Assembly (NCBI GenBank): GCA_903866355.1
Contig: CAIPNE010000714.1
Coordinates: forward strand, 64,825-128,824
DNA length: 64,000 nt
Direction: 5' to 3'
Origin: an uncultured Gammaproteobacteria bacterium
GTDB lineage: Bacteria > Pseudomonadota > Gammaproteobacteria > Ga0077536
Under the pieces are notes generated by a model. That model was not told the origin of the DNA, did no database searches, and saw only the letters and a program-made list of their open reading frames with translations. This document shows, piece by piece, positions 1 to 21,085 of this stretch. The stretch's first letter is position 1. Every line of letters starts with the position of its first letter. The translations under genes and the position numbers were made by a program.

Positions 1-3000
1 CAGCGCCACTTCGTTGGTCGGCTCAGTGCAAGTGACAATCGCATCCCCGGTTGGTGAGTGTGCCAGTTCAGTCACGTCGAGGTTGACTGCGTTCGGGTTG
101 CTCACACCACCCAGCCGCATGAAGTATCTGATGTGGGCAATTTCGGTGTACAGATCGGAGACGTAGAGGTCATCCTCAAAGGTGCCGGTGAGGTCGATTT
201 CCACAATGTAGACCTGATCCAGGGTGTCGGGTACCTCAAAGAATGAGGACTGGTAGGTGAACCACTTTCCGACTGTAGGATTCTGGATTTCTTCTTCGTG
301 TATGTAGACGCCGTCGCTCACTCGTCGCAGTCGCAGCGTGATGAAGTTGCTGTTCTGGATCGGCTTGTAGAACGTGCAGCAGATCCGCACCTGAGCGCCG
401 GGGAAGTAGTTGGTCTGCTGGATAACCCGTACGCCCGCAGATCCGGACCCGGCAGCCCGCCGGAAATGCAGTGCCCGGTTGCCTTTATAGGTCCGCTCAG
501 GGTCAATCCAGATAGCGACGGTAGCGCGAGCGTTGCCCCAGTTGACATTCTCGTCGGCCCACTCTGCGAACTGATCGCCCCACATACCCGGCGGCATGGT
601 CGTCGGACTGGTGTACCACGACAAAGCATTCTTATCGACGTTCTTGTTCAGCGGATCGTTTTGCGCCCACATCCGGTCAGAGCGGCGCAGACCTGAGTCG
701 CGGAAATCGCAAATGACCTTGTTGAACTTGGAGAACGTGATGAATCGGTTGTACAGGAAGCCCCGGCCACCGTTGCGCGGCTCAGCCTTGACCTCTGCGA
801 TCCAGAACTGGCCTGCGGTGACCCCAGCCGTGATTCTGAATCGGATAGCAAGGGCATCGACTCCATCGGACGGGACGGCATAGGTGCCCAGCAGGTGGGT
901 GAACGTAACGCCGTTCGTCCTGCCGGTTGGGTTGTCAATCGACACCCGTGATGCATTGCCGTCCAGCGCCGTGGGCGGGGTGTACCCCGGCGCAGCGGTA
1001 TTGGCCGATGCCGGGTCGAGGGTTTCGACACCCACCACTTCGCCGTCTAAGTAGGAGATAACATCCATGACGATTTGGGCGGTCGGAGACATCGGCTCAC
1101 CCCAGTAGGCGGTGCCGGGAGTGTAGCCGGGGTTGGGTTCCCCGATTCTCTCCCAGTAGAAGCCTCCGTAAAAGACAACTTCGCCGGGATAGTAGTCGGC
1201 TCCGTTATTGTAATTGCCTTTGTAGCTTGTCCCAAAAGCGGCGGGGAAGGTCGCACTCTCTGCGCCGACAAACTTAACGGATGCGCCGATAACCACTTCG
1301 TCCAGCGGATCGACCTTAAAGGGCGTCTTGGCCGTCAAGCTGACTTCGGTGCCGTCTGCAACGATACTGGCCGACCCCACCCGGTTTCCGGAGTAGCTGT
1401 CTTGGGTGCCGTCCCACACCCAGTCGCCCACCGTGACCCAGGAGTCGAGGTCGGCGAGGTCGAGGTCGGCATCGGTGTATGGCGATCCGGCGGCGGTGAC
1501 CGCACCAGTAATCGCTTGTGAGACATTGGTGAAGCGCCACTGGTTTGGGTCGTACACCTTAAAGTCGAAGGACAGCGGATCTTCATAGTCGATGTAGGTC
1601 GTCGCGTATGCGGCCACTTCACGGATACCGGCGAAGTACCCGATTGCAGCAGTGCGTGTTGCGGTCAGTGTGCGGTAGACGTGCGTTTCGGTGGTATTGA
1701 AGCGCACCCGCTGAGTAGTTGACGTTGTCGTAGTCAGGCTGGTTGAAACCGGCCCGCTCATAGGCGACGAGCCTTGTACGACGGAGTTGGTTCCGAAAAG
1801 CCCCCACTGGATTCCGGAGAAGATCGACTCCATGATCGCAGCAGGCATCTTCAGCAGACCGCCGGGGAAAAGCCAATAGTCTTTGCCCATCGCTGGGGTG
1901 ACCGGGGCCGCACCAGGATAAGACACGGTCGGCGCGAAGGCAGTAGATATTGCAGTGGCGATAGGTGTGGACACAGTCGCACCCAGCCCTTGAATGGGCA
2001 TGGTGCCTATGATTTTGTTGACCGTTTGTCCCGCAAGAATCTGCGGCTGAATATCCCTGCGTCGGTAGATCAGGCTACTGGTGGCTTCGTTCCGCAGCGC
2101 AATAGATGTACTGGGGTCGGCGGTTGCTCCGGTGGATTGGCCCAGTGCGGTAGCTACGGTGTTCGGGATACTGCCAGTTTCGGATGCTGACCCAATGGCT
2201 GCCGCCACGGGCTGAACCGTAGAAACCGTCGAGGCTTCAATAGCAGCATTAACGGCTCTGGGGTCTAGCCAGTTGACGCTGGAAATCCCCGCGACAAGGT
2301 TCCCGACATTGCCCAGCAGACCGTTGATGGATTCCCCGATATTGGTGACCGCACCCTTGACCGCACCAACAACGGTTTCAATTGCTCCTGGCGTATGAAC
2401 ATTCTTCGGAGACGGCAGGACAGTGGCCTGCATGTCGGTCCCCGGCACGTTTGTCGTCGTAGAGGTCGTGGTGGTCACATCGGCGTACACCGAAATCGGG
2501 AAAACCTCGTACGTCGTCTGGATGCCAGTGTCGTAAACCGGATAGGGTTCGGCAGTGAGCTTGGAGAACTCCATCTTGATCCACTTGGTGGAGATTTGCC
2601 TGGGGAAGAAGATCTTGCCCCGCTGGACGGTGTAGTCCCGCCAGATCGGGGTCCACCTACGGCTAACGTGCATGCTGGGGGACGAACCGCCGACCGGGAA
2701 GCGCTGTGCCGTCCAGTCGCACGAAAATACAGAATTGTCCAGGCTGCTGGAAGTTACCTCGCCTTGGGAGTCCGGAGTGATCGGGTCGGGATCAACGTAG
2801 GCAATCGGGTTGACCATAAAGCTCTCATGGTCATTGAGCCAGCTTGACAGCTTGATGATGTGTGCGGTCAAGAGGCCACGGAACTTGGAGAAGCTGACTT
2901 CGCCGTCGAGGGTGATGTAGTTCGGAAGGGCAAGGGTGTTCGGCGTATAGGAGTAGCCGATCTGACTGCCCTTCGACATCACCGAAATAAACACCGCAGA

Positions 3001-5106
3001 GCCGGGTGAGTCGTATGCCCATCCGGCGACGATGCGCAACGGCTCATTCTGAGTCAGCGGTGGCGACAGCGGTGCTTCAAAGTATTTCGATGTCGTACCG
3101 TTGGTGAACTCCAGCACGATCTTTCCGTAACCCAGGTTGCCCACGTCGTAGTACAGGCGCGGCCAGAATTGGCCGGATTCGGGGTTTTCAGGAATGATTT
3201 CCAGCAGTACCGGGTTGTCTCCTGGCGGGCTGGTGGCGGTGAAGTCGGGGGTCCACTCCACACCGATCCAGCAGTTCTTTTTGACCAGCGGGCCAACCCT
3301 GAACGGAGCGACAAACTCCGATTCCTCCGACCCCGTCGCTACATCCCACAGACCCCTGCCTGCTTGCCAGCGGGTGTGGGCTTCGACGGTTGGGGGAACA
3401 GAAATCGGTGACGGGTTGAGCGTGACCCCGTCCGGATCATCGTTGGTGTAGTAGATATTGAGGGCATTGCCGGTATAGATAGGGTCGATGTACAGAGTGT
3501 CGATGAGTTGCGGTGACCCATCCGCAGTTCGTACGTCAAGATAGAGCGAAACCACAGCGTCAGGAGTCGGCTGAGCCGACGAGCGCCAGAATGTGGCAGG
3601 GTTGTTGTCGATAGCTTTCGGGGCGTCCCAGTCCTTGATGTACGTCTCTACTACGTTGCCCAAAGCATCTTCAGTGATGGTGGTGGCGCGGATGCCGGAA
3701 GGCCGGTCGTACATATTGCGGCGCATCAGGACGTTGCGCAAACCGACGCAGTAGGGGCGGGTTCCCATGGCCGGGTCGGGCAGTCGAGTCAGTCGGAACT
3801 GAACCGCCTTGGCAAGGGTGGGACTGGTGTAGGCGGTATAGGGGTGCCAGTTCTCCGTGAATGACGCAGGCAGCGTCAGACTGACTGGGTTGCGGTTTTC
3901 ATCCAGCATGGCCCGCCAGTTGTCCTGCCGGTCGTGGTACCATACGTCGATTCTGGCCGGAACCTTGACCGCCTGGAATGACACATCATTGATCGGCATG
4001 GGGAGCTTGAAATTGACCTGGAGGACTTCGGTCTTCTGTTCAAACGTGCGAGCGGTCTTGTATTTTTGACCGACATCCCGCAGGTACTGAAGAGCGATCT
4101 GGTAGCTGGTCATCCCATTTCGTGGGTCGCCAGGAGGTGGTTCGGTGGGGTAGGTCATGTGACCACCACCTACTGTTCCAATGATGTCAAAAATCTCAGT
4201 AATGCCCTCAAAAACTTCAGTAATGGTGTTCCAGTTAAGAGCGTTTAGGTTGGCACCGATGAACGCAGCGAGGTCATTCCCGGTGAATCTCCCGATGAGT
4301 AGTGACCACAAAGTTGTCCAGTCCACACCTAGCAAAGAGTTGCCGGTTGCCCCGATAAGTTCTTTATCGTTGGCGAACTCCCACCACAGATCCGGAGTAT
4401 TTTTTAGGCGCTGTTCGGCAGAAAAGTTTCCGTGACTCAGCCCGTTCGACCCATCCAGGTCATCCCATGCAACCGGCTCAATTGCCCCAGGAAAAAGTTT
4501 TCCGGCCTGTCGGCAAGGATTACCAAAAGATATGCCAGCAAGGAGGTCTGCTTTTCTGTGCTGTAGCCGACCACCTTGAATCTCTTCCAACACCTTGGAC
4601 ATAACGGCAGCGCCCTGGCTATACCCTCCCAAAGCGAATGCGCCTGGGGTGTCGTTAATCATAGAGATTGTTTTCTCGACGCCCTCCCTCATTGATTGAC
4701 CAAACGGGAACATTGCATTGGCAAAGCTAACGGTCTTTACCGTCCACAAGTCAGCGTCAACCATTCGGTGGAAGGGGTCATTGGCGGGTGCCCAGGCCCA
4801 TTCGTAGAGCTTTCCATCAAGATCGCTGAAGGTCACACTCATTGGGGCGTAGATGGGCAACACCCCGAATCCAAAAAAATCAAACCAGTTGTGGGTTCCG
4901 GTGGAGTAGAAAAACGTCGGCTTCGGGACATCGCCTTGAGAGGCGGGTCGTGGCTGAGAGAACCACTCGCGGCCCTTGGAGGCGTCCACTATGGCATTGG
5001 GGGAATTGGGAGATTCGGCCTGCTGGGACAGCAGCTTGCGGATAGCGTTGTAGATGCCCAGCGGGATGTGGAACTCGTAGTACATGCTGTCGATAGGGTT
5101 AGTCAT
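1..5106 (-). CDS. Giant distal tail/baseplate-associated structural protein. It is 3'-truncated by the window edge, with more than 1,700 codons open. Its N-terminal region carries a cutinase/lysin-B-like serine esterase motif.
   Basis: Own reverse-complement translation from the ATG at 5104-5106 (ATGA overlap with the stop of the upstream gene) shows no stop codon down to position 1. The track does not list it, presumably because it is incomplete. Residues about 150-200 read ...TPGAFALGGYSQGAAVMSKVLEE... followed by ...LAGISFGNPCRQAG..., which matches the G-Y-S-Q-G nucleophile elbow and FGDP-like motif of cutinase-family esterases. It is the last gene of the baseplate/fibre block. Confidence 0.6.
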   Translation of the reverse strand, partial: MTNPIDSMYYEFHIPLGIYNAIRKLLSQQAESPNSPNAIVDASKGREWFSQPRPASQGDVPKPTFFYSTGTHNWFDFFGFGVLPIYAPMSVTFSDLDGKLYEWAWAPANDPFHRMVDADLWTVKTVSFANAMFPFGQSMREGVEKTISMINDTPGAFALGGYSQGAAVMSKVLEEIQGGRLQHRKADLLAGISFGNPCRQAGKLFPGAIEPVAWDDLDGSNGLSHGNFSAEQRLKNTPDLWWEFANDKELIGATGNSLLGVDWTTLWSLLIGRFTGNDLAAFIGANLNALNWNTITEVFEGITEIFDIIGTVGGGHMTYPTEPPPGDPRNGMTSYQIALQYLRDVGQKYKTARTFEQKTEVLQVNFKLPMPINDVSFQAVKVPARIDVWYHDRQDNWRAMLDENRNPVSLTLPASFTENWHPYTAYTSPTLAKAVQFRLTRLPDPAMGTRPYCVGLRNVLMRRNMYDRPSGIRATTITEDALGNVVETYIKDWDAPKAIDNNPATFWRSSAQPTPDAVVSLYLDVRTADGSPQLIDTLYIDPIYTGNALNIYYTNDDPDGVTLNPSPISVPPTVEAHTRWQAGRGLWDVATGSEESEFVAPFRVGPLVKKNCWIGVEWTPDFTATSPPGDNPVLLEIIPENPESGQFWPRLYYDVGNLGYGKIVLEFTNGTTSKYFEAPLSPPLTQNEPLRIVAGWAYDSPGSAVFISVMSKGSQIGYSYTPNTLALPNYITLDGEVSFSKFRGLLTAHIIKLSSWLNDHESFMVNPIAYVDPDPITPDSQGEVTSSSLDNSVFSCDWTAQRFPVGGSSPSMHVSRRWTPIWRDYTVQRGKIFFPRQISTKWIKMEFSKLTAEPYPVYDTGIQTTYEVFPISVYADVTTTTSTTTNVPGTDMQATVLPSPKNVHTPGAIETVVGAVKGAVTNIGESINGLLGNVGNLVAGISSVNWLDPRAVNAAIEASTVSTVQPVAAAIGSASETGSIPNTVATALGQSTGATADPSTSIALRNEATSSLIYRRRDIQPQILAGQTVNKIIGTMPIQGLGATVSTPIATAISTAFAPTVSYPGAAPVTPAMGKDYWLFPGGLLKMPAAIMESIFSGIQWGLFGTNSVVQGSSPMSGPVSTSLTTTTSTTQRVRFNTTETHVYRTLTATRTAAIGYFAGIREVAAYATTYIDYEDPLSFDFKVYDPNQWRFTNVSQAITGAVTAAGSPYTDADLDLADLDSWVTVGDWVWDGTQDSYSGNRVGSASIVADGTEVSLTAKTPFKVDPLDEVVIGASVKFVGAESATFPAAFGTSYKGNYNNGADYYPGEVVFYGGFYWERIGEPNPGYTPGTAYWGEPMSPTAQIVMDVISYLDGEVVGVETLDPASANTAAPGYTPPTALDGNASRVSIDNPTGRTNGVTFTHLLGTYAVPSDGVDALAIRFRITAGVTAGQFWIAEVKAEPRNGGRGFLYNRFITFSKFNKVICDFRDSGLRRSDRMWAQNDPLNKNVDKNALSWYTSPTTMPPGMWGDQFAEWADENVNWGNARATVAIWIDPERTYKGNRALHFRRAAGSGSAGVRVIQQTNYFPGAQVRICCTFYKPIQNSNFITLRLRRVSDGVYIHEEEIQNPTVGKWFTYQSSFFEVPDTLDQVYIVEIDLTGTFEDDLYVSDLYTEIAHIRYFMRLGGVSNPNAVNLDVTELAHSPTGDAIVTCTEPTNEVAL

Positions 5107-6455
5107 CAGGTACTCACAAAGGTGGCAGGATCGACCCAATCACCGGCCAGAGTGTTGGGTCGCTGGGCAGTAAGACTGGTCGATACCGTGGACTCCTGGG
5201 CAGGAGCAGAATAGGCCACAGCGTATTCGGCCCAGTAGGTGGTCTTAGGATTGCTTGACACCTTAATAGGCAGCTTGTAGTGCAGATCGTCGGCAATGCC
5301 GCCTTGGGCTTGGACATTTATCTTTTTGTCTGCGATGTAAGCCGACTGACTTGCCCACGGGAACTGATACGGGCTACGGTCGGGATTCAGAGCAGGGACC
5401 GCTAGTGGTGTGATGCCGTATTTGCCGCCGGGGTAATTGTCGGGAGCATCGGCCTTTTCGTAATTAATCCACTCAGTGTATGCCCCGGTGGACCGAAAGA
5501 TTTCAAAGTTCGGCTCAGATTTGATTGAGCCGTCAGGCTGTAGCGTCCCGTAGGTAACGGAGTCGATGGGTGACCTTTCGCCGCCGCCAATCAGGTAGTA
5601 GTACGAATACTCGCTGGTGACGTTGAATGCAGCGTAGGGCGCTAATTGAGCGTTATCGGTGGCATCGAAGAGCCACAGTTCGGATGGATTGAGGTTGAGG
5701 TTCAAGTCGGTGGAGGTCATCGTTTTGATGACCGGGCTGGCAACCACGCTCTTTTGGACTTCGTAGTATGTCGAAGTGGCGGCAATAGCTGAAATCTTCG
5801 CGGGCGCGAGCATCGACAAGCCACGAAGGTTGATGGAAATAATCGTGTCAACAGGAGTAATCCTGTCCAGCATGTCGCGCAGCAGCCGGAACTCTTCGGG
5901 CGACAACACATCCTTATGGGGGCGAACAGTCAGTTCGTTTCGGGCAGAGTACTGAGCGCGACCAAGGTTCTCCCCCAGGCCGAAGGCGTCGATGTATCGC
6001 CACGTCTCCAGAAGCGTGCAGTCGGTCCCGGTGGCAGCTTGCGAACACATCCGGACGCCTTGCGGAGTCCCACCTAGCGAGCAGGCAGCGAAGAAGTTTT
6101 TGATCCTGGCCCGATACCACGCATCCTTGACCCTGACTTCATTCCACTGATCCGACGTAAGCATGTCAGTCATTGGGCTGTACGAGTAGGACTCTGCCGG
6201 GGAGCGACCCAGGAAATTGATCTTAGAGAAGATGTAGTCCAGGTCATTGAAGTAAATCGTCTCCAGCGCGTTGGTGAGCCGCGCTAGGAAGGACTGGTTC
6301 AGTAGGCTCCCGGCCCCGGTGGTGCCACAGATGGAGTCAACGAACTTATAGAGCAGGGTGTCGGGAGTAGCCGTGTAGATCTGCTCATCGAAGTGAGCTA
6401 GCCGAAGCTCCGTAGAGATTGGCGGCAATACGGGGAAGGGGGCGACTGAAACCAT
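5106..6455 (-). CDS. Baseplate wedge / fibre-attachment protein, possibly gpI-like by its position after the J-like gene
   Basis: 449-aa ORF sharing the ATGA junction with the giant gene. Its position follows the Baseplate_J-like gene. No diagnostic motif was recognised. Confidence 0.4.
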   Translation of the reverse strand: MVSVAPFPVLPPISTELRLAHFDEQIYTATPDTLLYKFVDSICGTTGAGSLLNQSFLARLTNALETIYFNDLDYIFSKINFLGRSPAESYSYSPMTDMLTSDQWNEVRVKDAWYRARIKNFFAACSLGGTPQGVRMCSQAATGTDCTLLETWRYIDAFGLGENLGRAQYSARNELTVRPHKDVLSPEEFRLLRDMLDRITPVDTIISINLRGLSMLAPAKISAIAATSTYYEVQKSVVASPVIKTMTSTDLNLNLNPSELWLFDATDNAQLAPYAAFNVTSEYSYYYLIGGGERSPIDSVTYGTLQPDGSIKSEPNFEIFRSTGAYTEWINYEKADAPDNYPGGKYGITPLAVPALNPDRSPYQFPWASQSAYIADKKINVQAQGGIADDLHYKLPIKVSSNPKTTYWAEYAVAYSAPAQESTVSTSLTAQRPNTLAGDWVDPATFVST

Positions 6456-6456
6456 T

Positions 6457-8262
6457 CTAGGTAGCAGCCTTCCGGATGATCCTGACGTTGCGGTACATCA
6501 TCACTTGGTTGTCGGCCAGCTTGAAGTCCTCCGTCCTGATGACATCCGGAACGGTGTCGGCAGAGTTGGTGAATAGCTGGATTCCGTAGTTGGTCGAGTT
6601 CTCTGCTGCCGTGGTCACCTTTACGTCCACCACACCCAGGCATTGCTGGACGGCCATGCAGATGTTCGACAGCTTGAAGCTGGCCCCAAAGTTCAGGCCC
6701 TGGAAATACTTCTGGAGCCGGTTGATGATTGCGCTGTTCACCACAGATATGGAATAGGCGCGGTCGTATTCGATAGATAGGCACGGCTGGACGTACTGAT
6801 AGTCAGCCTGGTGAACCAGCACATCTGTCGTGATCTGCTTGTTCTGTGCCACCAGCGAATTAACTACTTCCGGCACGCGGTTATACACAAACTTCAGCGT
6901 GGTTTCGGTGCCGTTGGTGGGGCCTCTCCCCGACAGCCACTCAATGCCGCATATCTCGCGGTGGGAACCCGTCAGCAGAGTCGTGGTGTTGGCGTAATTC
7001 CTGGTCGTGGTCCGGATGACGTGGTAGTCAACCCCTTGGGTGTAAACAGAAGAGCCGATGGTGAGCTTTTCGGGGAAAGATACAATCGGAACACTGCCCA
7101 GCCTGATAAACCGACTGCTCAATGCAGGGGTGGAGTTGTCCCCGATCCGCTCAAAGTTCATGTTGTATAGCGGATCTGCGGACACCGCAGACAGCGTCTG
7201 CGCAGTGACTACGGTGCGCTCCGTTACAGGAAACGGATCAATTCCGTCTACAAAGATGTCTACCTTATTTGTAACCTTGTTGTCAGGATCATTTCGGGAG
7301 GCCGATGGGGTGTACTGGAACTCCACGTCCACTACGTCGCCAACCGACAGCGCACTTCCGGTAGACAGATTCAGGGTTGGCGTGGTGTAGCCCGACAGGC
7401 TGTAGTCAGTTTCGGGGACGTAGAAACGCTCCGTTGATTGCCCCAGGTCGGTGAAGACGCTGGCTCCGTCGCGCCAAATATGCTTGACGCCGCTGACGGG
7501 AATCGTAGTCGCGGTGTTCAGGATTTCGACCTGGGTCTTGTACAGCTTGATCGGGCCGACCACACTGGCGCGACTGACGTTGACATTCTGCAAAGCCAGG
7601 GAAATGTACCAATCGCTCGTCCCGGCAATGTTGCGCAGCAGCGTGTCCTTGAACCGCTGGCGCAAAGCAGGATCTGTTTCGGTATCAACCCCTCCGGTCG
7701 TGGAGGCCAGGTTCGTGACGGTGGTAGCGCCAAGCTGGGCGCTGACGGCGGCGATGGAGTCGGGCGGCACATTCCCGACGCTGCCGACCACGGTACATTC
7801 CACCGGGATGTCAATGCTGTAGTTGCCCGACGTGAGGATCGCCGCCTGGGACGTGGAGAAGCTGATTGTCCCACTCGTCCCGGCCATACCTGGCTTGGTG
7901 GTGAACTGGGTACCGACCGGAATCGGAGTGTCTACACTGCTGGCAGTCTCTACCTTCATTCGGACCACCCCTTTGGAGGGGCGTCCCTGGAGCCGTCCGA
8001 AACCAAAAATCCCGACAAACTGCTCCAGTTCCAAACCGACTTTGGTGTCGATGTCCAGCAGCGAGCCGGTCAGGTACTGGCTGATGTAGGCGGCAGAGAT
8101 AGCCTCTGAGCAGGCGTCGATGATTTTCCGCTCAGGTGTACCAAGCTCGCAGGACAGGCCGGGAGCCGTGGTGTTCAGCGTGGCGATGATGGAGGCCGAA
8201 ATGTCGGCAGGACTTTTAGGCACCTTGGGATACCGCAATCGTGGCTTGGGCATTATCGGCAT
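6457..8262 (-). CDS. Baseplate_J-like (gp47/gpJ-type) baseplate protein
   Basis: 601 aa. The N-terminal region ...ELGTPERKIIDACSEAISAAYISQYLTGSLLDIDTKVGLELEQFVGIFGFGRLQGRPSKGVV... resembles the conserved Baseplate_J signature. It sits between the small W-like gene and the wedge gene. An alternative start at the ATG at 8253 is possible. Confidence 0.5.
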   Translation of the reverse strand: MPIMPKPRLRYPKVPKSPADISASIIATLNTTAPGLSCELGTPERKIIDACSEAISAAYISQYLTGSLLDIDTKVGLELEQFVGIFGFGRLQGRPSKGVVRMKVETASSVDTPIPVGTQFTTKPGMAGTSGTISFSTSQAAILTSGNYSIDIPVECTVVGSVGNVPPDSIAAVSAQLGATTVTNLASTTGGVDTETDPALRQRFKDTLLRNIAGTSDWYISLALQNVNVSRASVVGPIKLYKTQVEILNTATTIPVSGVKHIWRDGASVFTDLGQSTERFYVPETDYSLSGYTTPTLNLSTGSALSVGDVVDVEFQYTPSASRNDPDNKVTNKVDIFVDGIDPFPVTERTVVTAQTLSAVSADPLYNMNFERIGDNSTPALSSRFIRLGSVPIVSFPEKLTIGSSVYTQGVDYHVIRTTTRNYANTTTLLTGSHREICGIEWLSGRGPTNGTETTLKFVYNRVPEVVNSLVAQNKQITTDVLVHQADYQYVQPCLSIEYDRAYSISVVNSAIINRLQKYFQGLNFGASFKLSNICMAVQQCLGVVDVKVTTAAENSTNYGIQLFTNSADTVPDVIRTEDFKLADNQVMMYRNVRIIRKAAT

Positions 8263-8632
8263 TGCGCACAGATACCGTGGCAGACACAGTGTCGTACGAA
8301 ATAGCGACGTTAATGGCGTCGATGGAATACAGCAGTTCGGAATAGCTGTAGCGCTGAGGCGCAGCCTTCAGGCCCTGAAGCTGAACCGACTGGTAGTTCT
8401 GGAGGATGCGCAGCACTTCGCTCTGGATCTTGGAGCGGGTGTTGTCGGTAATGAGTGAACCAATGAAATCGGGCAGGACCGACCCCAGTTTGGGGTGGAA
8501 CCTGTCGATGCCATACCGTTCGGTAACCCACAGGCAAAGGTCTTGTTTCAGCTTTTCGCTGCCGTAGACGATAGCCATGGAGTTGCCGGTACGGACCAGA
8601 TCCCCGTTGGCGATAGCCAAGCTGTACGTCAC
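8216..8632 (-). CDS. Small baseplate protein (gp25/gpW-like by size and position only)
   Basis: 138 aa with a GTG start preceded by GAGGAGG at an 8-nt spacing. It lies immediately upstream of the J-like gene, as in Mu/P2-type baseplate gene order. Confidence 0.35.
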   Translation of the reverse strand: MTYSLAIANGDLVRTGNSMAIVYGSEKLKQDLCLWVTERYGIDRFHPKLGSVLPDFIGSLITDNTRSKIQSEVLRILQNYQSVQLQGLKAAPQRYSYSELLYSIDAINVAISYDTVSATVSVRNADNAQATIAVSQGA

Positions 8633-8683: not shown

Positions 8684-10822
8684 CTAGTAGGCGTACAGCC
8701 AGACTCGACCGGCTGCCCCGGCCCCACTGTTTGTTCCCCCCACCAATACACCGTCTCCACCTGACCCACCGCCGCCGGGGGCGTTTCCGTTACCTGAAGC
8801 CGTGGTCGAAGCGGCACCGCCGCTGTAGGTTCTGTTATTGAATGTGTAGTTTCCCGGCGAACCACCATTTCTGGTGACTGTGTAATAGAAATTAGCTGCA
8901 CCACCAGCCGCTACGGTAGATGGGCTGCTCAAAGTAGAGTTGCCACCGGCACCCGGCGCTGCGCCGAAGGCGATCCCTGCGGGCGCTCCAGCACCCACCA
9001 CCCCGCTAAGGGTGGTTACGGTCCAGCCGCCAGCAGGACGAGAAATAGTCACGCCCGACCAAGACCCCTGCTTGCCGCCGCCGCCGGTATTGAAGAAGGC
9101 ACCGCCCTGCCCACCAGCACCGCCGCCGCCGACCATGACTACGTCGATCTTGGTACACCACGTCGGGATTGTGTAGTTGTACGCACCTGCTGTTGAGTAG
9201 ATAGTCTCAGTTGGAATGTTGTAGTAGGCCGCGTTGGCTACCGAAGCGCTGCCGCCGGGGGTGGTGATGACCATGGACTTCCACCCCACAGTCATGGTCG
9301 GCCACGCCAGAGCCAGCGAGGTCGTGCTGTTTACATAGATCGTGGCTGATGTGCCTCCCACCGTTACCGTTGTCTGGCCGGGGACGAAGCCACTGCCGGT
9401 AATGGTGACTTGAGTTCCTGACGTGACCTGTGTTGCCGACGTGCCGCTATAGGTCGGTGCTGCGTAGTAGGTGAATACGTTAGATCCGGTGACCGACCCG
9501 ACAGAGTTAGTGATAACCAGGCTTTTTGCGCCTGCCGACGATATCGTGGGCACCTGAAAGCTCAACGAAGAAGTGCTGCTTATCGACAGCCCGATAACGG
9601 GAGCGCCGCCAAGCGTGACTGAAGTTCCGCTGATGAAGTTGCTTCCCGTAACGCTGATCGAATCCCCGGCCTTACCGCTGGGGGAAGAGATACCGGAGTA
9701 GGTCGGGGCCACAAGGGTGGTGAACACCCCGCCGCCGGTAACTGAACCCACCGGAGTGGTGATGACCACGTCTTTTGCCCCCGCAGAAAGCGAAGGAACC
9801 GTACAGGTCAGTGAGGTTCCCGATGCCACCGAAACATTCGTAGCGCTGACTCCACCGATAGTGACGGTGGTCGATCCGGATACGAAGTTGGTGCCGCCGA
9901 TAGTGACTGTTGCTCCTGACCCTGCGCTGGTTGGAGAAATTGCGGTGTAGGTCGGTGCCCCCAAATAGTTGAAGGTTCCGGTAACCGACCCTCCCTTGGT
10001 GGTGATGACGATATTTTTAGTGCCAGGGAGAAGGGTCGGAATTGTGCAGGTCAACGATGTATTGGAGTTGACAGTTACACCTACTGTTGCGCCGCCGATA
10101 GTAACTGTGGTGTCTCCCACCATGAAGTTTGTGCCGGTAACGGTGACAGCAGTTCCTGCGATGCCGGTATTGGGGGAAACGCTGGCGAAGGTCGGAACTC
10201 CGTAGTTGGTGAACACCCCGGTGCCCTTAACCGAAGATCCGGCAGTTGTGATGACAACGTCGAGGGTGACACTGCCGAATCCTTCAGGGATCTTGCACGT
10301 CAGCGATGTGCTTGATGAGACGCTGACGTTAGTAGCAGGCGGGAATCCGGTGACTCCGGTGACGCCGAAGGTCACAGCAGTATTCCCGACTACGAAGTTG
10401 GTTCCGGTGATCGTGACTGTAGTCCCGCCTCCACCGTTGATCGGAGAGATAGATGCATAGGTCGGGGATACGGCATAAGTGAATCCCCCCGTCAGCGTTG
10501 CTGTCCCTCCAGCACCGGCAACCACAACATCTTTTGTGCCGGAAGTGGTCAGGGTAGGTACCTTACACACAATTTGAGCGGTACCTAGCACAGATACATT
10601 TGTGGCCGCTACGCCGCCAATGCTGACCGTAGAGCCTGCTACGAAGTTGCTGCCGTTAATAGCAATATCAGTTCCGGCAGTTCCTGAGCTTGGCGAGATT
10701 GTCGTAATGGTCGGGGGTGTTGAGGCGCTATACGCCTGCGTGGTGCCGACATAAATAGCCTGGACCGGGGTTGACCCCAGGTAAATCCCTGCGGCGCTGC
10801 TGCCGCCCTGGTAGATAGGCAT
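8684..10822 (-). CDS. Tail protein with about 7 tandem IPT/TIG-like Ig-fold repeats and a C-terminal glycine-rich domain
   Basis: 712 aa. A roughly 85-aa repeat unit (ISPxSGxAGTxVTIxGTNFxxGxTxVTIGGVxATNVSVxSxTSLTCTVP...) recurs about 7 times. The C-terminus reads ...YNYTIPTWCTKIDVVMVGGGGAGGQGG...GRVWLYAY. It is coupled TAA-ATG to the upstream gene. Confidence 0.6.
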   Translation of the reverse strand: MPIYQGGSSAAGIYLGSTPVQAIYVGTTQAYSASTPPTITTISPSSGTAGTDIAINGSNFVAGSTVSIGGVAATNVSVLGTAQIVCKVPTLTTSGTKDVVVAGAGGTATLTGGFTYAVSPTYASISPINGGGGTTVTITGTNFVVGNTAVTFGVTGVTGFPPATNVSVSSSTSLTCKIPEGFGSVTLDVVITTAGSSVKGTGVFTNYGVPTFASVSPNTGIAGTAVTVTGTNFMVGDTTVTIGGATVGVTVNSNTSLTCTIPTLLPGTKNIVITTKGGSVTGTFNYLGAPTYTAISPTSAGSGATVTIGGTNFVSGSTTVTIGGVSATNVSVASGTSLTCTVPSLSAGAKDVVITTPVGSVTGGGVFTTLVAPTYSGISSPSGKAGDSISVTGSNFISGTSVTLGGAPVIGLSISSTSSLSFQVPTISSAGAKSLVITNSVGSVTGSNVFTYYAAPTYSGTSATQVTSGTQVTITGSGFVPGQTTVTVGGTSATIYVNSTTSLALAWPTMTVGWKSMVITTPGGSASVANAAYYNIPTETIYSTAGAYNYTIPTWCTKIDVVMVGGGGAGGQGGAFFNTGGGGKQGSWSGVTISRPAGGWTVTTLSGVVGAGAPAGIAFGAAPGAGGNSTLSSPSTVAAGGAANFYYTVTRNGGSPGNYTFNNRTYSGGAASTTASGNGNAPGGGGSGGDGVLVGGTNSGAGAAGRVWLYAY

Positions 10823-12646
10823 TTACGTCACAATGTAGACGGTCGTAGATGACTTGGTGCCGATTGCGGCATACTGTGCAGCGGTTCCTGTCCACAGCGT
10901 GAGCGTTGCGGCGGTTCCGGCGCTGCTACCCTGGACATATCCGGCAGGGATTGATTGCAATGCACTATTTGCCAAGCTCAGCGACTGCTGGACAGCAGAA
11001 GTTAAGTCGGTAGAGGGGATGCCGCTACCGGGCCGGGTATAGGTTCCAGCACCCAGCGAAGTGAGCGCCGCCGACGTGCTGGCGGCAGTCAGCAAAGCAC
11101 GCCCCGTAGCCGTCGAGTCGATAATCGTGCTGGCTGTCACCGACTGCAACGCAGTATCGGCCTTGCCCAGACTGGACTGAACTGCTGAGGCCAGATCAGT
11201 CAGGGGGATGCCCGTGGAGGGCTTGGAGTAGCTTCCGACACCCAATGTGCTTCGGGCTGCTGCGGCGTCAAGTGCCGTCAGCAGAGCCTTGCCGGTTGTC
11301 GTAGCGTCGGTGATGTTGCTGGATGCGACGGTCTGCAAAGCACTGTCGGCCTTATTCAGGCTTGTCTGGATGCCGGTCGCAAGGTCGCCAAAGGGGACAC
11401 CGCTGTTGGGCTTGGTGTAGGTTCCGGCACCCAGAGTGGTGCGTGCAGATCCGACATCGGCGGCAGTCAACAGAGAACGGCCAGTCACCGTCGAGTCAGT
11501 AATGGCTGCGGCGTTCACCGACTGCAACGCAGTAGCTGCGGCGGCAAGTGCGGTCTGCACAGCGCTGGTCATGTCATCGGAAGGGATGCCGTTGGACGGC
11601 CTGGAGTAGGTGCCGGTCCCGGCTCCGATAGCGGTGCGGGCGCTGGCCGAATCGACCGATGTCAAAAGTGCCCTGCCGACAACGGTCGAGTCCGTAATGT
11701 CGGATGCGGCGATGCTGGCGACATTTCCGGTGGTGGTCACGCCGATAAGGTTTCGGGCGGTAGCTGAATCGACAGCGGTCAGCAGGCTTCTTCCGACTGA
11801 TGTTGAGTCGCTGATGCTCGTTGCGGTTGGAGCGTAGTTGCCCGCCAGGGCGGTGGACGATGTTGTCCCCAGCGTCAGATTGGAGGTTCCGGCACCAATA
11901 ACGGCGCGGGCGGCTGCTGCTGACGCAGAAGTTATTAGACCTCGCCCCACCGATGTCGAGTCGCTGATACTGACAGAGGAAGGCGCATAGTTTCCTGCTA
12001 GAGCAGTGGTCGAGGTAGTGCCCAGCGCCAGATCGGATGTACCTGCGCCGATAGCGGTGCGGGCTGCCGCCGCCGTAGCTGCCGTCAGAACGGACCTGCC
12101 GGTTGCGGTGGAGTCAGAGATTCCCGCCGCGCTGACCGATTGCAGTGCGCTGTTGGCGGCAGCCAACGAGGTCTGTACCGCCGTGGTGAAGTCCGTAGAG
12201 GGGATTCCTCCGGAGGGCTTGGAGTAAGTGCCTGCACCCAGTGCTGTGCGGCCCGCAGCCGCGTCTACAGCCACCAAGACGCCCTTGCCTACCGTGGTGG
12301 CCCCAATGGCGTCCTGGGCGGCGCTGGTAGTGGCAGCCTTTAGGACAGCCCTGCCGACCGCCGTGGAGTCCACGATGTCGGTGGCGTTGATCGACGTACC
12401 CGTACCGATGCCCAGGACGGTGCGGGCGTCCTCAATCGTAAGGGCAGTCAGCAGCGAAACACCGACCGAAGAGGCATCCCCCAGGTTGGCGGCACTAATG
12501 CCGTACGGAAGGTTCTGCCAGTTGGTCAGGCCGTCGCCGTACTTGAACTTGCGGGTGTCGGTTTCGTACCCCATTTCTCCGACAGCAAGGATTGGGTCGG
12601 CAGACACCCACTGGTCTGAAGTTCCCCGGCGGGGTTGGATCAGCAT
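10823..12646 (-). CDS. Tail fibre protein built from about 12 tandem repeats of roughly 37 aa (phage tail-fibre-repeat-like)
   Basis: 607 aa. The motif I(T/S)DST(A/V)xGRxLLTAxDxAxARxAIGAGT recurs throughout. The N-terminus is MLIQPRRGTSDQWVSADPILAVGEMGYETDTRKFKYGDG. Confidence 0.6.
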   Translation of the reverse strand: MLIQPRRGTSDQWVSADPILAVGEMGYETDTRKFKYGDGLTNWQNLPYGISAANLGDASSVGVSLLTALTIEDARTVLGIGTGTSINATDIVDSTAVGRAVLKAATTSAAQDAIGATTVGKGVLVAVDAAAGRTALGAGTYSKPSGGIPSTDFTTAVQTSLAAANSALQSVSAAGISDSTATGRSVLTAATAAAARTAIGAGTSDLALGTTSTTALAGNYAPSSVSISDSTSVGRGLITSASAAAARAVIGAGTSNLTLGTTSSTALAGNYAPTATSISDSTSVGRSLLTAVDSATARNLIGVTTTGNVASIAASDITDSTVVGRALLTSVDSASARTAIGAGTGTYSRPSNGIPSDDMTSAVQTALAAAATALQSVNAAAITDSTVTGRSLLTAADVGSARTTLGAGTYTKPNSGVPFGDLATGIQTSLNKADSALQTVASSNITDATTTGKALLTALDAAAARSTLGVGSYSKPSTGIPLTDLASAVQSSLGKADTALQSVTASTIIDSTATGRALLTAASTSAALTSLGAGTYTRPGSGIPSTDLTSAVQQSLSLANSALQSIPAGYVQGSSAGTAATLTLWTGTAAQYAAIGTKSSTTVYIVT

Positions 12647-12662: not shown

Positions 12663-13355
12663 TCATGGCGTACCACCCGTGACAAATATGTCTCCTGCAC
12701 TTTCTGGTGTGCCACCGTCCAAATCTGCTCCCAGGCCGGGGCCGGAAACCGATCCACCACTGACAATCGGGTCGTCATTCGGGGTCGTGGCGGTGCCGCC
12801 GCTGATACCGGAACCGGCCACCGAAAGCCCAAGAATGGACAGGACGGTGTTGACATCCGGCGCGGTCAGCAGGAGCCTCCCCAGCACGGTGGAGTCGGTG
12901 ATGTTGTTCGACGGCATGGTTGACGGCGCTGATGAAATTGAGGTCCAGGTGCCGTTTGCTTCCTGCCGCTGAAGCGTGCCCCCGTTGTCGCGGTAAGCCA
13001 CACCGTTGAGGGTCATGGTTTCGGCATTGATGTTGACCACCGACCCATTGATTTCGGTCGGTCCCCCCGCACCGATCTGCGTCTGTCCCTGCGTCGGAGA
13101 GATAAGCTCCCCGGCTGTCTGATAGGGAATACGGGCATGCAGCCGCCACTCTCCGCGATGCCGGGAGACATACCATTGCTCGCCCACTGCCGGGACAGAC
13201 ATCACCGACCCGACGTAATACCGGGTATTGATCCAGACTTCTGTCCCCTGCCGGGTGCGTCCGCAGGCTTTGTAGCTGGAAACATCAACCGACGTGATCG
13301 CCACGGCGTGAATGTTGACATCGTTGGGGCTTTGAGTGGTGTATCCGTTTATCAT
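12663..13355 (-). CDS. Baseplate spike / fibre-anchoring protein (tentative)
   Basis: 230 aa. It is ATGA-coupled to the hub-lysin gene. The C-terminal region contains one copy of the fibre repeat (ITDSTVLGRLLLTAPDVNTV) and a glycine-rich tail. The N-terminal half has spike-like beta-rich composition. Confidence 0.4.
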   Translation of the reverse strand: MINGYTTQSPNDVNIHAVAITSVDVSSYKACGRTRQGTEVWINTRYYVGSVMSVPAVGEQWYVSRHRGEWRLHARIPYQTAGELISPTQGQTQIGAGGPTEINGSVVNINAETMTLNGVAYRDNGGTLQRQEANGTWTSISSAPSTMPSNNITDSTVLGRLLLTAPDVNTVLSILGLSVAGSGISGGTATTPNDDPIVSGGSVSGPGLGADLDGGTPESAGDIFVTGGTP

Positions 13356-16189
13356 TCTGGCGACACCACCGTGGGATACGTCGTCGGTTCTGGCAGCAGG
13401 TCGTAGCTTCCGAAGTTGTCGGACGGCCAGCGCCAGTTGGTCAGTGAGTTCTCGTTCAAAATGGTCTGTGCCGCCGCCGGATCGGTCGGGGAGGACAGGA
13501 CGGCTCGCGTCGAGAATCCTTGCTCATAGTCGAATGAATGTTCGACAGCAGAGCAGTACATCTGAAGATTGTGCTTGCGCAGCAGCACCCTCATGCCGGG
13601 ATACAGTTCGGGCATAAATGTGAAGGAGACGTTGGCCCGGTACATAGACGAGAACTTCCCCATGAACAACTGGGTCGCCAGCAGAAACTCCATGGCCGGG
13701 TTGCTGACCATCGTGTAAGTCTGCTTAAAGGGTCGCACGCCAAACTTTCGGATAATCTCCCTGCCGGTCATCCCCTGCATGTCGCCAGGAGCCACCTTGC
13801 GAAGCTGATTGAATAGCGGTTCATTCTCCATCGTGGCTACACCGGCTGACATGATCCAGCCTGTCAGCCCACGATCCTGACCAAAGCCCACATAGTCACC
13901 ATCTACATAAACGTGAGTGGTTAGCGGATCGTCGGACAGGTCAATCCGGAAGTCTTTGATTTCGATGTCCTCCAAAGACAGAATGGCGGGCTTGCCATAC
14001 AGGCCAAACTCGTCGGGCGTGTACGCCATGAAGTCGCCGTTCGGGGCGCTCTGGAAGTTGCGCAGGCTGGCACGGCAGAGTGCCTGCACCATCTGTATCA
14101 GCGGCTGACCGTCGATGAACTGCTTCTCGCCAGGAAGCAACTGGGAGATACTGGTTGACCACGTTCCTGGCCGGAACTGGAAGGAGAACAGATTTCGGGC
14201 GATGGGTTCGGTGATTTCTCCCATAGCGCCTCCACCGCCTCGCTGCCCGGTTCCTGCTGGCAAGCCACGGGGAAGTCCCATGATGGGCGGGGTGTACGGA
14301 GCGCTGAGGTCGGGTCCACCATTCGGACAGGCACGGCGTGCCGTCATTGTGGACAGCGGCTCAGGTATCGGCTCAATCTGGCCGGGTGAGCCTTCTGGCC
14401 CTCCGGTGTTGATCCACATTCCCGCACCCAGGTAGATCCCGACATGGTCGTACATTGACGTGAATAGCAGATCGCCACGCTGAGCGGCGGTAGAGGGGAT
14501 TACTGCTGGCAATGCACTCTGGCCTGACGTTCCGTCTCCGATATCGACGTTGATGCACCGGAACGCCCAGTTGGTCAAACCGGAGCAGTCCAGTCCGACG
14601 CCGGGGGTTTTCCCGCCATACTCGTAAGGAGTCTGATACATCAACAGCGCAGCGTTAATCGCGCCTTCGGAGTCGGGTACCGGCTTACCTGCACGGGTGT
14701 TGGCTAGGGCTGGTCCCGACCCTGTGCCGGTTGATGCCAGCGTGCTGTAGTTGCTCACCGCCGAATTGATGGAACTGGTGACCGTACTGGTTACTGAGCT
14801 AGCCAGGGGGATTGTGTTAATGATCGCCCAGGATGCCAGCGCCGTACCTTCCTGCTGAGCTTTCCGGTAGGCGAGAACAATGCCTTTGGCTGCTTCAAAT
14901 GCCGCGCCGTACAGTTCAGGGGTGGCCCCTACTTGAACTTTGTAGATCGCTGAGCCGGGAGCCATGTTGCGCCAGTTAAACTGCCCCAGCTTGTCGTAGA
15001 ACATTCCCGCCGCCGCATACGGATTCATCCGCTGGGCCACAATGCCCCATCCGGCTCGCTGCTGGAAGAGGCCGACAGAGTCGAGGTTCGGGTTCGGGGG
15101 GAATCCATCGTTGGGGAAGGTCGCTGATTCTTTTACGGTCGGATTGGCAAAGTTCTTCCAGGTGCCGCCGGTTTCTACCAGAATGCAGGCCACTGCCAGG
15201 GCAGCAGCATCTGACTGATCTTCCTGCACGCCCTGAGCAATACCTAAGTTACCGATCTGTTGCCATGAAGCCTGGTCGCTACTGCCGACCGATGCCTGCG
15301 CTGCACCGGCTTCACCGGCAGCCTTGAGGGCATTGGCTTGCTGAATGTTGGTGGTCGTCGGACCCATGCCACGGGCATCGCATGCGGCGATGATGTACGG
15401 GAGATAGGCGACCTGACCCGTTCCTCCGATTCCGGCACCGGGTGGAGGCCATGCACCCAGCGGAGCGGATGCGTTGTATCCCGCTGCCGACCGCTGAGGG
15501 AAAGAGTGGTCGGGGCCTAGCATCATGGTGTAGAACGAATCTTCTGCTGCCCGGTATCCCGGCATGTTGCGGTCCAGGTATTCCTTGACGAACGGGAAGA
15601 AGGCCATGGGGAAGTTCTGGATGTGAAGCTGGTTAGGGTTCCAGTTGCCGACGCGGATCATAATTTCGCGCAGCATGCCGCCAATGCCAGAGTCAATCGG
15701 GAACTGGCCGTCCCCGCCGACCATAGAGTTGAAGCCATACTGACTCATTAGCGCCTGGTTTTGCGGCGTGGCCGGGTTCCACCAAGTGTGCAGTAGCTTT
15801 TTGAGCGTGCAGGTTGCGCGGAACTCTGCAATGCCAGGGTGTAGCTGGCGATAAGGGATCTCATCTAAGAATCCGGTGAAGACCTGGATCATCCGTGTGC
15901 GCTTTAGGTAAAGGGTCACTACGTCCATGCGACTGAAAGCGAACGGCTCCCCGGCGTTGTATCGGGGCTGCCCGCCGGGGACCAGTGGCTTATTGGCAAG
16001 GGCAAAGGACAGCGTAGAAGCGGAGTTCTCTTTGCGAGAGACAGCGCCACGGATGAGGTCTGCCGATACGTCATAAAGGACGTTTTTGTGAGTAATGAAA
16101 ATCTTGGCCTCCGGTGAGTACACCAGAGTTTTCATTTCGTTAGGGGCGTAGGGGTTAAGCTGCGGCCCCGAATCGGGGTAAGTCACCAA
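13352..16189 (-). CDS. Baseplate hub / tail-associated lysin with lysozyme-(SLT/GH23)-like and NlpC/P60 peptidase domains
   Basis: 945 aa. One region reads ...GVGLDCSGLTNWAFRCINVDIGDGTSGQ...RGDLLFTSMYDHVGIYLGAGMWINTG, which is the NlpC/P60 Cys...His signature. Another reads ...ACILVETGGTWKNFANPTVKESATFPNDGFPPNPNLDSVGLFQQRAGWG, which is like the SLT motif E...GLFQ. It lies directly downstream of the tape-measure and small distal-tail genes. Confidence 0.7.
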   Translation of the reverse strand: MVTYPDSGPQLNPYAPNEMKTLVYSPEAKIFITHKNVLYDVSADLIRGAVSRKENSASTLSFALANKPLVPGGQPRYNAGEPFAFSRMDVVTLYLKRTRMIQVFTGFLDEIPYRQLHPGIAEFRATCTLKKLLHTWWNPATPQNQALMSQYGFNSMVGGDGQFPIDSGIGGMLREIMIRVGNWNPNQLHIQNFPMAFFPFVKEYLDRNMPGYRAAEDSFYTMMLGPDHSFPQRSAAGYNASAPLGAWPPPGAGIGGTGQVAYLPYIIAACDARGMGPTTTNIQQANALKAAGEAGAAQASVGSSDQASWQQIGNLGIAQGVQEDQSDAAALAVACILVETGGTWKNFANPTVKESATFPNDGFPPNPNLDSVGLFQQRAGWGIVAQRMNPYAAAGMFYDKLGQFNWRNMAPGSAIYKVQVGATPELYGAAFEAAKGIVLAYRKAQQEGTALASWAIINTIPLASSVTSTVTSSINSAVSNYSTLASTGTGSGPALANTRAGKPVPDSEGAINAALLMYQTPYEYGGKTPGVGLDCSGLTNWAFRCINVDIGDGTSGQSALPAVIPSTAAQRGDLLFTSMYDHVGIYLGAGMWINTGGPEGSPGQIEPIPEPLSTMTARRACPNGGPDLSAPYTPPIMGLPRGLPAGTGQRGGGGAMGEITEPIARNLFSFQFRPGTWSTSISQLLPGEKQFIDGQPLIQMVQALCRASLRNFQSAPNGDFMAYTPDEFGLYGKPAILSLEDIEIKDFRIDLSDDPLTTHVYVDGDYVGFGQDRGLTGWIMSAGVATMENEPLFNQLRKVAPGDMQGMTGREIIRKFGVRPFKQTYTMVSNPAMEFLLATQLFMGKFSSMYRANVSFTFMPELYPGMRVLLRKHNLQMYCSAVEHSFDYEQGFSTRAVLSSPTDPAAAQTILNENSLTNWRWPSDNFGSYDLLPEPTTYPTVVSPE

Positions 16190-17004: not shown

Positions 17005-17775
17005 TTATTGCATGGTGGGGATCGTGAACAGATTGAACTGCGGCGATACCGTGCCGAAAGCATTGACGATTCCGGAACCCAACGCGCCGCCGGTCACGCT
17101 GGGAGGGGAAGCAATTGTTGGGATGTTCAGTGAGGCCGCTGCCGATGCGGGGATGCCGCTGATTTTGGAGCCGATGTTCCCCACTATCGGAAGCGAACCT
17201 CCCTTAAATGTTTCTGAGTTTCCGATAAGACCTTCGTCATTGTTCGGGGCGTAGAAGAAATCGTTGTATTCGTTGCGCTCCCAGCCGATGCCGTTGATGA
17301 AGGATTGCAGCGCAGTGCTGATGGTCGTGGAGGACACGATGCCGGAAATGTCCTCCTGCACCTTGAAGTTCAAGGTCAGTTCACGGGTGGTGGAGTTGAC
17401 TTGATCGGCAAAGGGGAAGCTGGCGGCATAGACCTTTAGCTTCCAGTTGCGGGTGGTGTACTCAAAGACAGCGGTCTGGCCGTTGCGCTGGGCCACCATG
17501 AGGTCGCGCATAAAGGCCACTACCTTGATGAGATAGGGCCAGCCTCCCTGACCGCAGTCCACCTTGACGGTGAGGTCGTCAATCCTGGTCCCCAGGATCT
17601 GCACTACCCGGCCACCATAGGTTTGGTCTGTTTTGGTGATGAGGCTGTAGTTCCAGGTGACCTCGTTTGGGTTTGTCCGGAAGCGCAGGACGTGACTACC
17701 CCAGGTAAGTGAGGCGATTCCCCGCTGCGGATTAAACGACGAGTTTGATTGCTGCTGGATATTGGGGGCGGTCAT
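17005..17775 (-). CDS. Distal tail / baseplate-initiator protein (tentative)
   Basis: The track ORF starts at 17787 (TTG). I prefer the ATG at 17773-17775, which overlaps the tape-measure stop as ATGA. 256 aa. It sits immediately after the tape-measure gene. Confidence 0.45.
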   Translation of the reverse strand: MTAPNIQQQSNSSFNPQRGIASLTWGSHVLRFRTNPNEVTWNYSLITKTDQTYGGRVVQILGTRIDDLTVKVDCGQGGWPYLIKVVAFMRDLMVAQRNGQTAVFEYTTRNWKLKVYAASFPFADQVNSTTRELTLNFKVQEDISGIVSSTTISTALQSFINGIGWERNEYNDFFYAPNNDEGLIGNSETFKGGSLPIVGNIGSKISGIPASAAASLNIPTIASPPSVTGGALGSGIVNAFGTVSPQFNLFTIPTMQ

Positions 17776-21051: not shown

Positions 21052-21085
21052 TTGTCCTCCTGGGGTTTAGGGCAGTTACCTTGGG

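Follow-up and report, generated by a model that had tools for sequence, protein, structure and literature searches.

How phages pass through the mycolic-acid outer membrane of their hosts at entry is essentially unknown. The question is raised by a 64,000-nucleotide stretch of contig CAIPNE010000714.1 (hereafter the window; GenBank assembly GCA_903866355.1, positions 64,825 to 128,824), at whose left edge a giant minus-strand gene joins an esterase module to a phage tail protein. This gene encodes the terminal, largest baseplate-module protein of an uncultivated myovirus related to the Cluster C and Phrappuccino mycobacteriophages. The explanation that we favour, if narrowly, is that the module is a virion-borne mycomembrane esterase acting at entry; its presence in the virion, its activity, its substrate and its role are what we infer. 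The parts of the arrangement (a LysB-type esterase, a gp141-like minor tail protein, virion-associated lysins) are known, and their combination is new within the literature searched.

An esterase module inside a giant tail protein

The minus-strand frame runs from 5106 to 1 through 1,702 stop-free codons (reverse-complement translation of 1..5106), in line with the preliminary description, which had spoken of more than 1,700 uninterrupted codons and an ATG at 5104-5106; this start is backed by metagenome gene calls and by the N-termini of homologues. The frame is missing from the supplied list of open reading frames because it runs past the window edge. Extending the contig, as had been proposed, yields the C-terminus: on the metagenome contigs L037 and L038, independent assemblies from different samples, the protein is complete at 1,724 amino acids (aa), its final 22 codons lying beyond window position 1. 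The L038 protein is 100% identical to that of the window across 1,702 aa, and L037 differs from the window at 2 bases in 16,455 (99.99% identity). Two details of the earlier account do not hold. Instead of an ATGA-type, four-base start coupling, the junction with the upstream gene (g2, 5106..6455) reads TGATG, the g2 stop TGA at 5108-5106 sharing one base with the giant-gene ATG. Nor is the bias in GC content at third codon positions (GC3) kept throughout: GC3 falls from 0.77 in the N-terminal segment to 0.57 across the esterase module and stands at 0.72 for the tail body, where one other 100-codon stretch is equally low. The low value of the module is compatible with its acquisition from elsewhere.

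The gene and its parts are as follows:

1..5106, minus strand: giant baseplate/minor tail protein gene; open frame, complete on L037/L038; phrog_2840 minor tail protein, E=0
4936..5106, minus strand: conserved N-terminal segment, aa 1-57 (…YYEFHIPLG…REWFSQPRP), from alignment and a tblastn table of about 40 loci
4036..4935, minus strand: inserted LysB/cutinase-type alpha/beta-hydrolase module, aa 58-357, corresponding to a whole free-standing esterase
4618..4620, minus strand: predicted nucleophile Ser163 (codon AGC) in G-Y-S-Q-G, aa 161-165; aligns with D29 LysB Ser82
4516..4527, minus strand: FGNP, aa 194-197, the GNP motif; aligns with D29 WGNP
4360..4362, minus strand: predicted acid Glu249 (ANDK-E-LIGA); aligns with D29 Asp166 (HDG-D-MYAS)
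4159..4161, minus strand: predicted catalytic His316 (GGG-H-MTYP), a His conserved in the clade; alignment to D29 His240 weak here
1..4035, minus strand: tail body, aa 358-1702 (begins KTEVLQVNFKLP); tblastn identity 41.9% to Phrappuccino gp88 and 38% to Cali gp141

The esterase is an in-frame internal insertion after the conserved 57-aa segment, and not an N-terminal extension, because segment and body also occur, joined directly, in esterase-less homologues. Cali gp141 and Phrappuccino gp88 (1,264 and 1,282 aa; phrog_2840; Cluster C/AA) are homologous in N-segment and body at 36-42% identity and occupy the same position after the Baseplate_J and DUF7297 genes, but lack the enzyme module. The alignment shows the 57-aa segment to be common to the window protein, gp88, gp141 and two metagenomic proteins, all of which resume at TEV..NFKLPLS; about 300 residues stand in between in the window protein and in its relative P0001. 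Further on, aa 359-1702 match gp88 at 41.9% identity over about 1,345 aa, up to 23 codons before the gp88 stop, and the body matches gp141 at 36-38% (tblastn). PHROGs profiles assign aa 114-350 to phrog_102 ('endolysin', i.e. LysB; E=3e-31) and the protein from aa 352 onwards to the minor tail family phrog_2840 (E=0). The insert comprises an entire free-standing esterase, from its PTFFY..GT start to its TSYQIALxYL C-terminal helix. The esterase does lie early in the protein, as the preliminary description had it, but is set behind the 57-aa segment and does not form the N-terminus proper; at the level of architecture, a predicted enzymatic domain appears as part of a tail structural protein. 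A PDB sequence search with the tail body returned no meaningful match, and Pfam and NCBIfam gave no above-threshold family for body or module, with no NCBIfam match to the module at all; a weak F5/8 type C match in the body (Pfam, E=0.14) was left unused.

It seems very improbable that the long frame is an artefact, whether an assembly chimera or a read-through of an esterase gene and a tail gene. The relative P0001 on contig L001 does show frameshifts, and free-standing esterase genes adjoin tail genes in other phages. Against this, the identical 1,724-aa gene is found on two independent assemblies, a third contig carries its first 319 codons, and the same architecture recurs in 12 diverged cluster representatives. 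That the esterase is internal, rather than a gene lying upstream, follows from the 57-aa segment before it, which is tail-protein sequence in all homologues. The exact g2 protein sequence occurs on at least 16 metagenome contigs, one of 149.6 kb (from ERZ1426767), and all three g2 loci fetched have the giant gene downstream (L039 ends within it). An assembly chimera is ruled out by the identical g2 and giant genes on other contigs and by the diverged relatives with the same architecture.

Judged by homology and predicted fold, the module is a LysB/cutinase-type serine esterase (a class represented by PF01083, PF08237 and phrog_102) with its catalytic positions occupied. The GYSQG nucleophile motif and the downstream FGNP, both singled out in the preliminary description, are present at the positions listed. 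The triad of D29 LysB is Ser82/Asp166/His240, and the GNP motif is conserved in LysB enzymes (PMC7022511); the triad positions were checked against the D29 sequence. The acid column holds D or E in essentially all of about 150 homologues, with E in the window protein, in its nearest representative P0018 and in many close free-standing relatives, and the GGGHxxYP motif containing His316 is conserved within the clade. A phmmer search of PDB with the module matches D29 LysB (3HC7). An AlphaFold model built from 14 sequences (predicted template-modelling score, pTM, 0.71) has a confident core of beta-sheet and nucleophile elbow with a poorly defined lid, and as modelled the module shows a cutinase-like alpha/beta fold.

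The two bases at which L037 departs from the window both fall in the 900-nucleotide module, in the lid region, and both are nonsynonymous (W267L, I305F). They may reflect diversifying selection on a substrate or receptor contact.

Tail-module relatives and lysis enzymes

The same phage carries a canonical LysB of its own. Beyond the left edge of the window, 1.9 kb downstream of the giant gene, L037 encodes at 18404-19417 a 337-aa protein with a full-length phrog_102 match (5e-91), a D29-like sequence (LFTVHGTG…NYPAAAFP) and an N-terminal peptidoglycan-binding-like segment. After it, at 19454-21350, comes a protein of 952 aa that contains two LysB-type modules, the first reading SHSQG and the second GNGVG, its nucleophile lost. 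Counting the tail insert, the phage thus has at least four esterase modules; within the 64-kb window itself, a tblastn search with the module turned up no further one.

The insert shares 29% identity with the phage's own 337-aa LysB and 35-39% with a distinct set of free-standing proteins of 327-352 aa, the tail-module clade. On these figures, a recent duplication of that LysB was considered as its source and rejected. Five of the free-standing relatives were examined, and the gene of each stands within a tail or baseplate block. Specifically, P0005 comes straight after the minor tail genes in a siphovirus, with an amidase-holin cassette bearing its own esterase 4-6 kb further on; P0014 and P0010 are flanked, in related myoviruses, by hub-side genes on one side and by the Baseplate_J, DUF7297 and gp141-like genes on the other, and the gp141-like proteins of these phages are without the insert; and P0008 and P0011 stand amid siphovirus tail genes. 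The siphovirus on L040 has a tail-module esterase in addition to one within its amidase-holin cassette. Because these five relatives sit in tail blocks, the insert is assigned, on sequence and gene context, to this tail-module clade, whose LysB-type esterases are separate from the LysB of lysis cassettes. The free-standing metagenomic actinophage tail esterases P0003-P0016 (P0005 and P0014 among them) are closest to the insert, with 33-39% full-length identity, the same PTFFY..GT start, the same GGGHxxYP…TSYQIALxYL end and a tail or baseplate location, but unlike the insert they are separate genes, unfused to a gp141-like protein.

A siphovirus contig, L043, offers a side observation. At 1-1440, a 2,643-aa protein in tape-measure position has Pfam matches to VldE (PF26571) and, weakly, to an ADP-ribosylating exotoxin (PF03496).

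These relations set the module apart from LysB proper. D29 gp12 (PDB 3HC7) and Ms6 LysB are free mycolylarabinogalactan esterases of the lysis cassette, where lysin B is encoded alongside lysin A and holin and acts at lysis. The module, by contrast, sits as a domain inside a baseplate protein of 1,724 aa, and for this reason it is called LysB-type here and not a functional 'lysin B'. It also has no counterpart to the peptidoglycan-binding N-terminal domain that appears to be present in the phage's own LysB, carries Glu in place of Asp as predicted acid, and shares at most 32% identity with any LysB of a cultured phage. The mycobacterial cutinase-like lipases Rv3802c (5W95) and MSMEG_6394 (3AJA) are host cell-wall enzymes with only 13-16% identity to the module.

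Action at the end of infection, either as an extra dose of LysB from unassembled tail protein or as a receptor-destroying enzyme that frees progeny from debris and lysed cells, appears improbable. The closest characterised relatives are indeed lysis enzymes, and with two more LysB-type genes (337 and 952 aa) after the tail gene the region may be a tail/lysis hybrid. Yet the phage already has a canonical LysB, a structural protein of 1,724 aa would be a poor carrier for a diffusible lysis enzyme, the relatives lie between the hub genes and the baseplate genes, well away from lysis cassettes, and L040 retains a separate cassette esterase. The separate LysB of this phage, together with free-standing relatives in tail or baseplate blocks of phages with their own lysis cassettes, bears out the earlier view that the module is not a lysis enzyme.

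The fusion is recurrent and widespread in metagenomes. Some 30 homologues of the tail gene are without the insert, and 3 of 32 IMG/VR relatives of the gene have it at this site (L004, L005 and L033). In a neighbour-joining tree of the body, drawn without support values, the insert-bearing L037 (the window phage), L004 and L033 group together. Among cultured phages, tblastn places module homologues in 1,705 records, at exactly one place in each; the top 40, and likewise a sample of 60 taken from across the ranking, consist entirely of lysin B or endolysin genes, the best with 31.7% identity (9e-19), so that the fusion is absent from 50,697 deposited phage genomes at this search sensitivity. An exhaustive phmmer search of 1.84 billion representatives retrieved 344 module relatives, 208 of them at E <= 1e-10. 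The best 150 of the 344, of which 149 have a scorable nucleophile position, fall into the following classes:

gp141-like giant tail proteins with module: 12 proteins; nucleophile Ser 8, Gly 4
tandem-module proteins: 18 proteins, 37 modules; nucleophile Ser 26, Gly 11
other single-module proteins of at least 600 aa: 29 proteins; nucleophile Ser 28, Gly 1
single module, 451-599 aa: 8 proteins; nucleophile Ser 8
free-standing, up to 450 aa: 82 proteins; nucleophile Ser 81, Ala 1

Eight long fusions of 890-1,373 aa (seven other single-module proteins and the two-module P0048) were scanned, and all pair phrog_102 with minor-tail families.

Three of the relatives deserve separate mention. On L033 (4339-6800), an Ig-like segment and a Beta-lactamase-family serine hydrolase (PF00144, E=9e-43) precede the LysB-type module at the same insertion site, which would place two hydrolases in one baseplate protein. 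In P0144, a 1,193-aa representative and gp141-like fragment, the module (GTGQG, nucleophile lost) lies in the middle of the tail body and not after the N-segment, which suggests a second, independent insertion site. L001, the contig of P0001, has several frameshift-like breaks in its DUF7297 and giant tail genes (1-5500) and is probably a low-accuracy assembly; because of these frameshifts, the 645-aa length of P0001 is taken as an artefact.

The baseplate block

Every gene in the window is on the minus strand, and local tblastn shows its tail module to be colinear, from sheath to baseplate, with the annotated Phrappuccino and Cali loci. The giant gene is the last of this block, after the Baseplate_J and DUF7297 genes, as in its homologues. 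Upstream of it lie the following:

5106..6455, minus strand: g2, DUF7297 virion structural protein (PF23970, E=3.5e-204; phrog_2813; synteny)
6457..8262, minus strand: g3, baseplate wedge of the Baseplate_J family (synteny; PF04865 on the identical L037 gene)
8216-8632, minus strand: baseplate protein (synteny)
8684-12646, minus strand: g5 (712 aa; six TIG/IPT repeats and Gly_rich_2) and g6 (607 aa; Mtd_N and a Phage_tail_C tip domain)
13352..16189, minus strand: g8, large virion protein with NlpC/P60 (PF00877, E=7.8e-17; phrog_2810; Cali gp131 homologue)
17775-20120, minus strand: tape measure (synteny)
22150-23727, minus strand: sheath, then tube and chaperones (synteny)
31801-34500, 36346-39240, 44206-48162 and 48166-52623, minus strand: four very large open reading frames (900, 965, 1,319 and 1,486 aa) upstream of the tail module

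The earlier placement of the giant gene at the end of the baseplate block, as a structural tail protein, agrees with this synteny and with its 36-42% identity to annotated minor tail proteins. Presence of the protein in the virion is predicted from homologues annotated as minor tail or virion structural proteins. In g8 the NlpC/P60 domain spans aa 520-596, and aa 317-445 give a weaker endolysin-family match; by its domains the protein is a classical virion-associated peptidoglycan hydrolase, which is likely an enzyme of the hub or central spike and would supply a partner activity for entry. g5 and g6 are without counterpart in the Phrappuccino or Cali baseplate modules and resemble an inserted fibre or receptor-binding cassette that separates hub-side from baseplate genes.

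At the DNA level, the window has no match to any deposited phage; megablast of the giant gene against 50,697 phage records gave none, and neither did a search for exact 46-mers in the IMG/VR, JGI metagenome and GTDB genome collections. At the protein level, 968 of 990 matching phage records are Mycobacterium phages. No transfer RNAs were found in the 64-kb window.

A related myovirus on L042 (9523-13692) encodes a 1,389-aa gp141-like protein with a precomputed Pfam DUF7297 match. This hints at shared ancestry or domain overlap of two adjacent baseplate genes.

Possible cutting or binding at entry

The available data are compatible with a model in which the module is displayed on the virion, on the baseplate, because it is embedded in the terminal baseplate protein. 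The host would be a mycolic-acid actinobacterium, as suggested by the Mycobacterium phage relatives and the canonical LysB. On adsorption, the module would hydrolyse ester-linked lipids of the mycomembrane, the candidate substrates being acyl-trehalose or mycolate esters of the outer leaflet and, deeper, mycolyl-arabinogalactan. The outer membrane would thereby be locally loosened or processed, so that the contractile tail and the NlpC/P60-bearing g8 could reach and cut the arabinogalactan-peptidoglycan layer. At lysis, the separate canonical LysB would do the equivalent job from inside. The natural substrate may be outer-leaflet glycolipids and not mycolyl-arabinogalactan, because the former are reachable from outside. 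Such lipids already figure in work on phage infection, and one of the phages concerned, I3, is a Cluster C myovirus. Phages BPs and Muddy depend on trehalose polyphleates (TPPs), and glycopeptidolipids (GPLs) are proposed receptors for I3 (PMC10465359).

Several points weigh against this reading. The ester bonds of mycolyl-arabinogalactan are at the inner leaflet and are not what a virion meets first. Virion incorporation and esterase activity are both predictions from sequence. In the model, the lid with the acid and His region has a predicted local distance difference test (pLDDT) score below 50 (residues 243-260, just upstream of His316). Asp is described as absolutely conserved as the LysB triad acid, and the window module has Glu249, although Glu serves as triad acid in some lipases (PMC7022511). 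The module scores 21.1 bits against Pfam Cutinase (PF01083), below the gathering score of 25.9. The phage's own canonical LysB also stays under this threshold (18.2 bits), and the threshold therefore does not discriminate here; the phrog_102 match is strong (3e-31). To these points is added the loss of the nucleophile serine in relatives, to Gly in 4 of the 12 giant-tail fusions (P0019/L004, P0093, P0144 and P0153) and in 11 of the 37 tandem modules.

This loss is one reason to consider that the module is mainly an adhesin derived from an esterase, which would bind lipids or glycolipids and anchor the baseplate to mycolate or acyl-trehalose lipids, with hydrolysis incidental or absent. For the window protein we regard this as unlikely. 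Serine loss is concentrated in fused and tandem copies: Gly also replaces Ser in 1 of 29 other long single-module fusions, and only 1 of 82 free-standing proteins (up to 450 aa) has lost it, to Ala. In L004, an AGC-type Ser has become a GGC Gly with acid and His kept. Surface glycolipids (TPPs and, as proposed for I3, GPLs) are known or proposed mycobacteriophage receptors (PMC10465359), and both differences between L037 and the window are nonsynonymous and lie in the module lid. Against a binding role alone, the window protein keeps Ser163, the GNP motif, Glu249 and His316, and serine is kept in 8 of the 12 giant fusions. Since the window protein and its nearest representative P0018 (52% identity) both keep Ser, Glu and His, an active enzyme is favoured here with moderate confidence. 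Where Gly has replaced the nucleophile, catalysis would be dispensable and the copies would be binding domains; some copies of the family thus probably bind rather than cut. The envelope-penetration device proposed in the preliminary description stands insofar as an entry role is favoured over lysis, while 'adhesion device' may be the better term in some lineages, a third of the giant fusions having lost the serine.

An enzyme for entry within a tail protein is not new as a concept. Virion-associated lysins and depolymerases, such as the peptidoglycan hydrolase motif in the TM4 tape measure and T4 gp5, follow it (PMC6116005, PMC6116114). But the known mycobacteriophage virion enzymes target peptidoglycan, for which the window phage also has the classical NlpC/P60 enzyme g8, whereas the module is of lipid-esterase type with the mycomembrane as its predicted target, against which the literature searched describes no enzyme carried by a virion. 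Two 2018 reviews confine LysB to lysis and describe mycobacteriophage virion enzymes as peptidoglycan-directed only (PMC6116005, PMC6116114), and recent cryo-electron microscopy papers on baseplates mention no esterase. The preliminary description had not known the arrangement to be described, and neither the literature searched, a limited library, nor the 50,697 deposited phage genomes held a precedent for a tail-embedded LysB-type esterase.

Beyond the window, uncultivated phages that infect mycolic-acid bacteria may share a broad and so far unrecognised class of entry devices made up of tail-borne LysB-type modules, a proposal that we advance tentatively, as falling a little short of probable. 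Its members would occur as free baseplate-module genes, as tandem-module proteins and as fusions with minor tail proteins of at least three kinds; the active copies would act on the mycomembrane from outside, opening or processing it, and Ser-to-Gly copies would act as lipid-recognising receptor-binding domains.

Taken together, the baseplate esterase offers a concrete and clonable hypothesis for the passage of phages through the mycolic-acid outer membrane, backed by an architecture that recurs across many uncultivated phages. The reviews and structural papers checked contain peptidoglycan-directed virion enzymes and glycan-binding domains only, with LysB purely an enzyme of exit. The repeated Ser-to-Gly variants would constitute a natural series from enzyme to adhesin. 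If the tail-borne class is real, it would offer a first molecular way into the question of how the mycomembrane is crossed by phages, and its modules would have evolved for action from outside the cell, the property sought in LysB-based antimycobacterials and in engineered therapeutic phages with altered host range.

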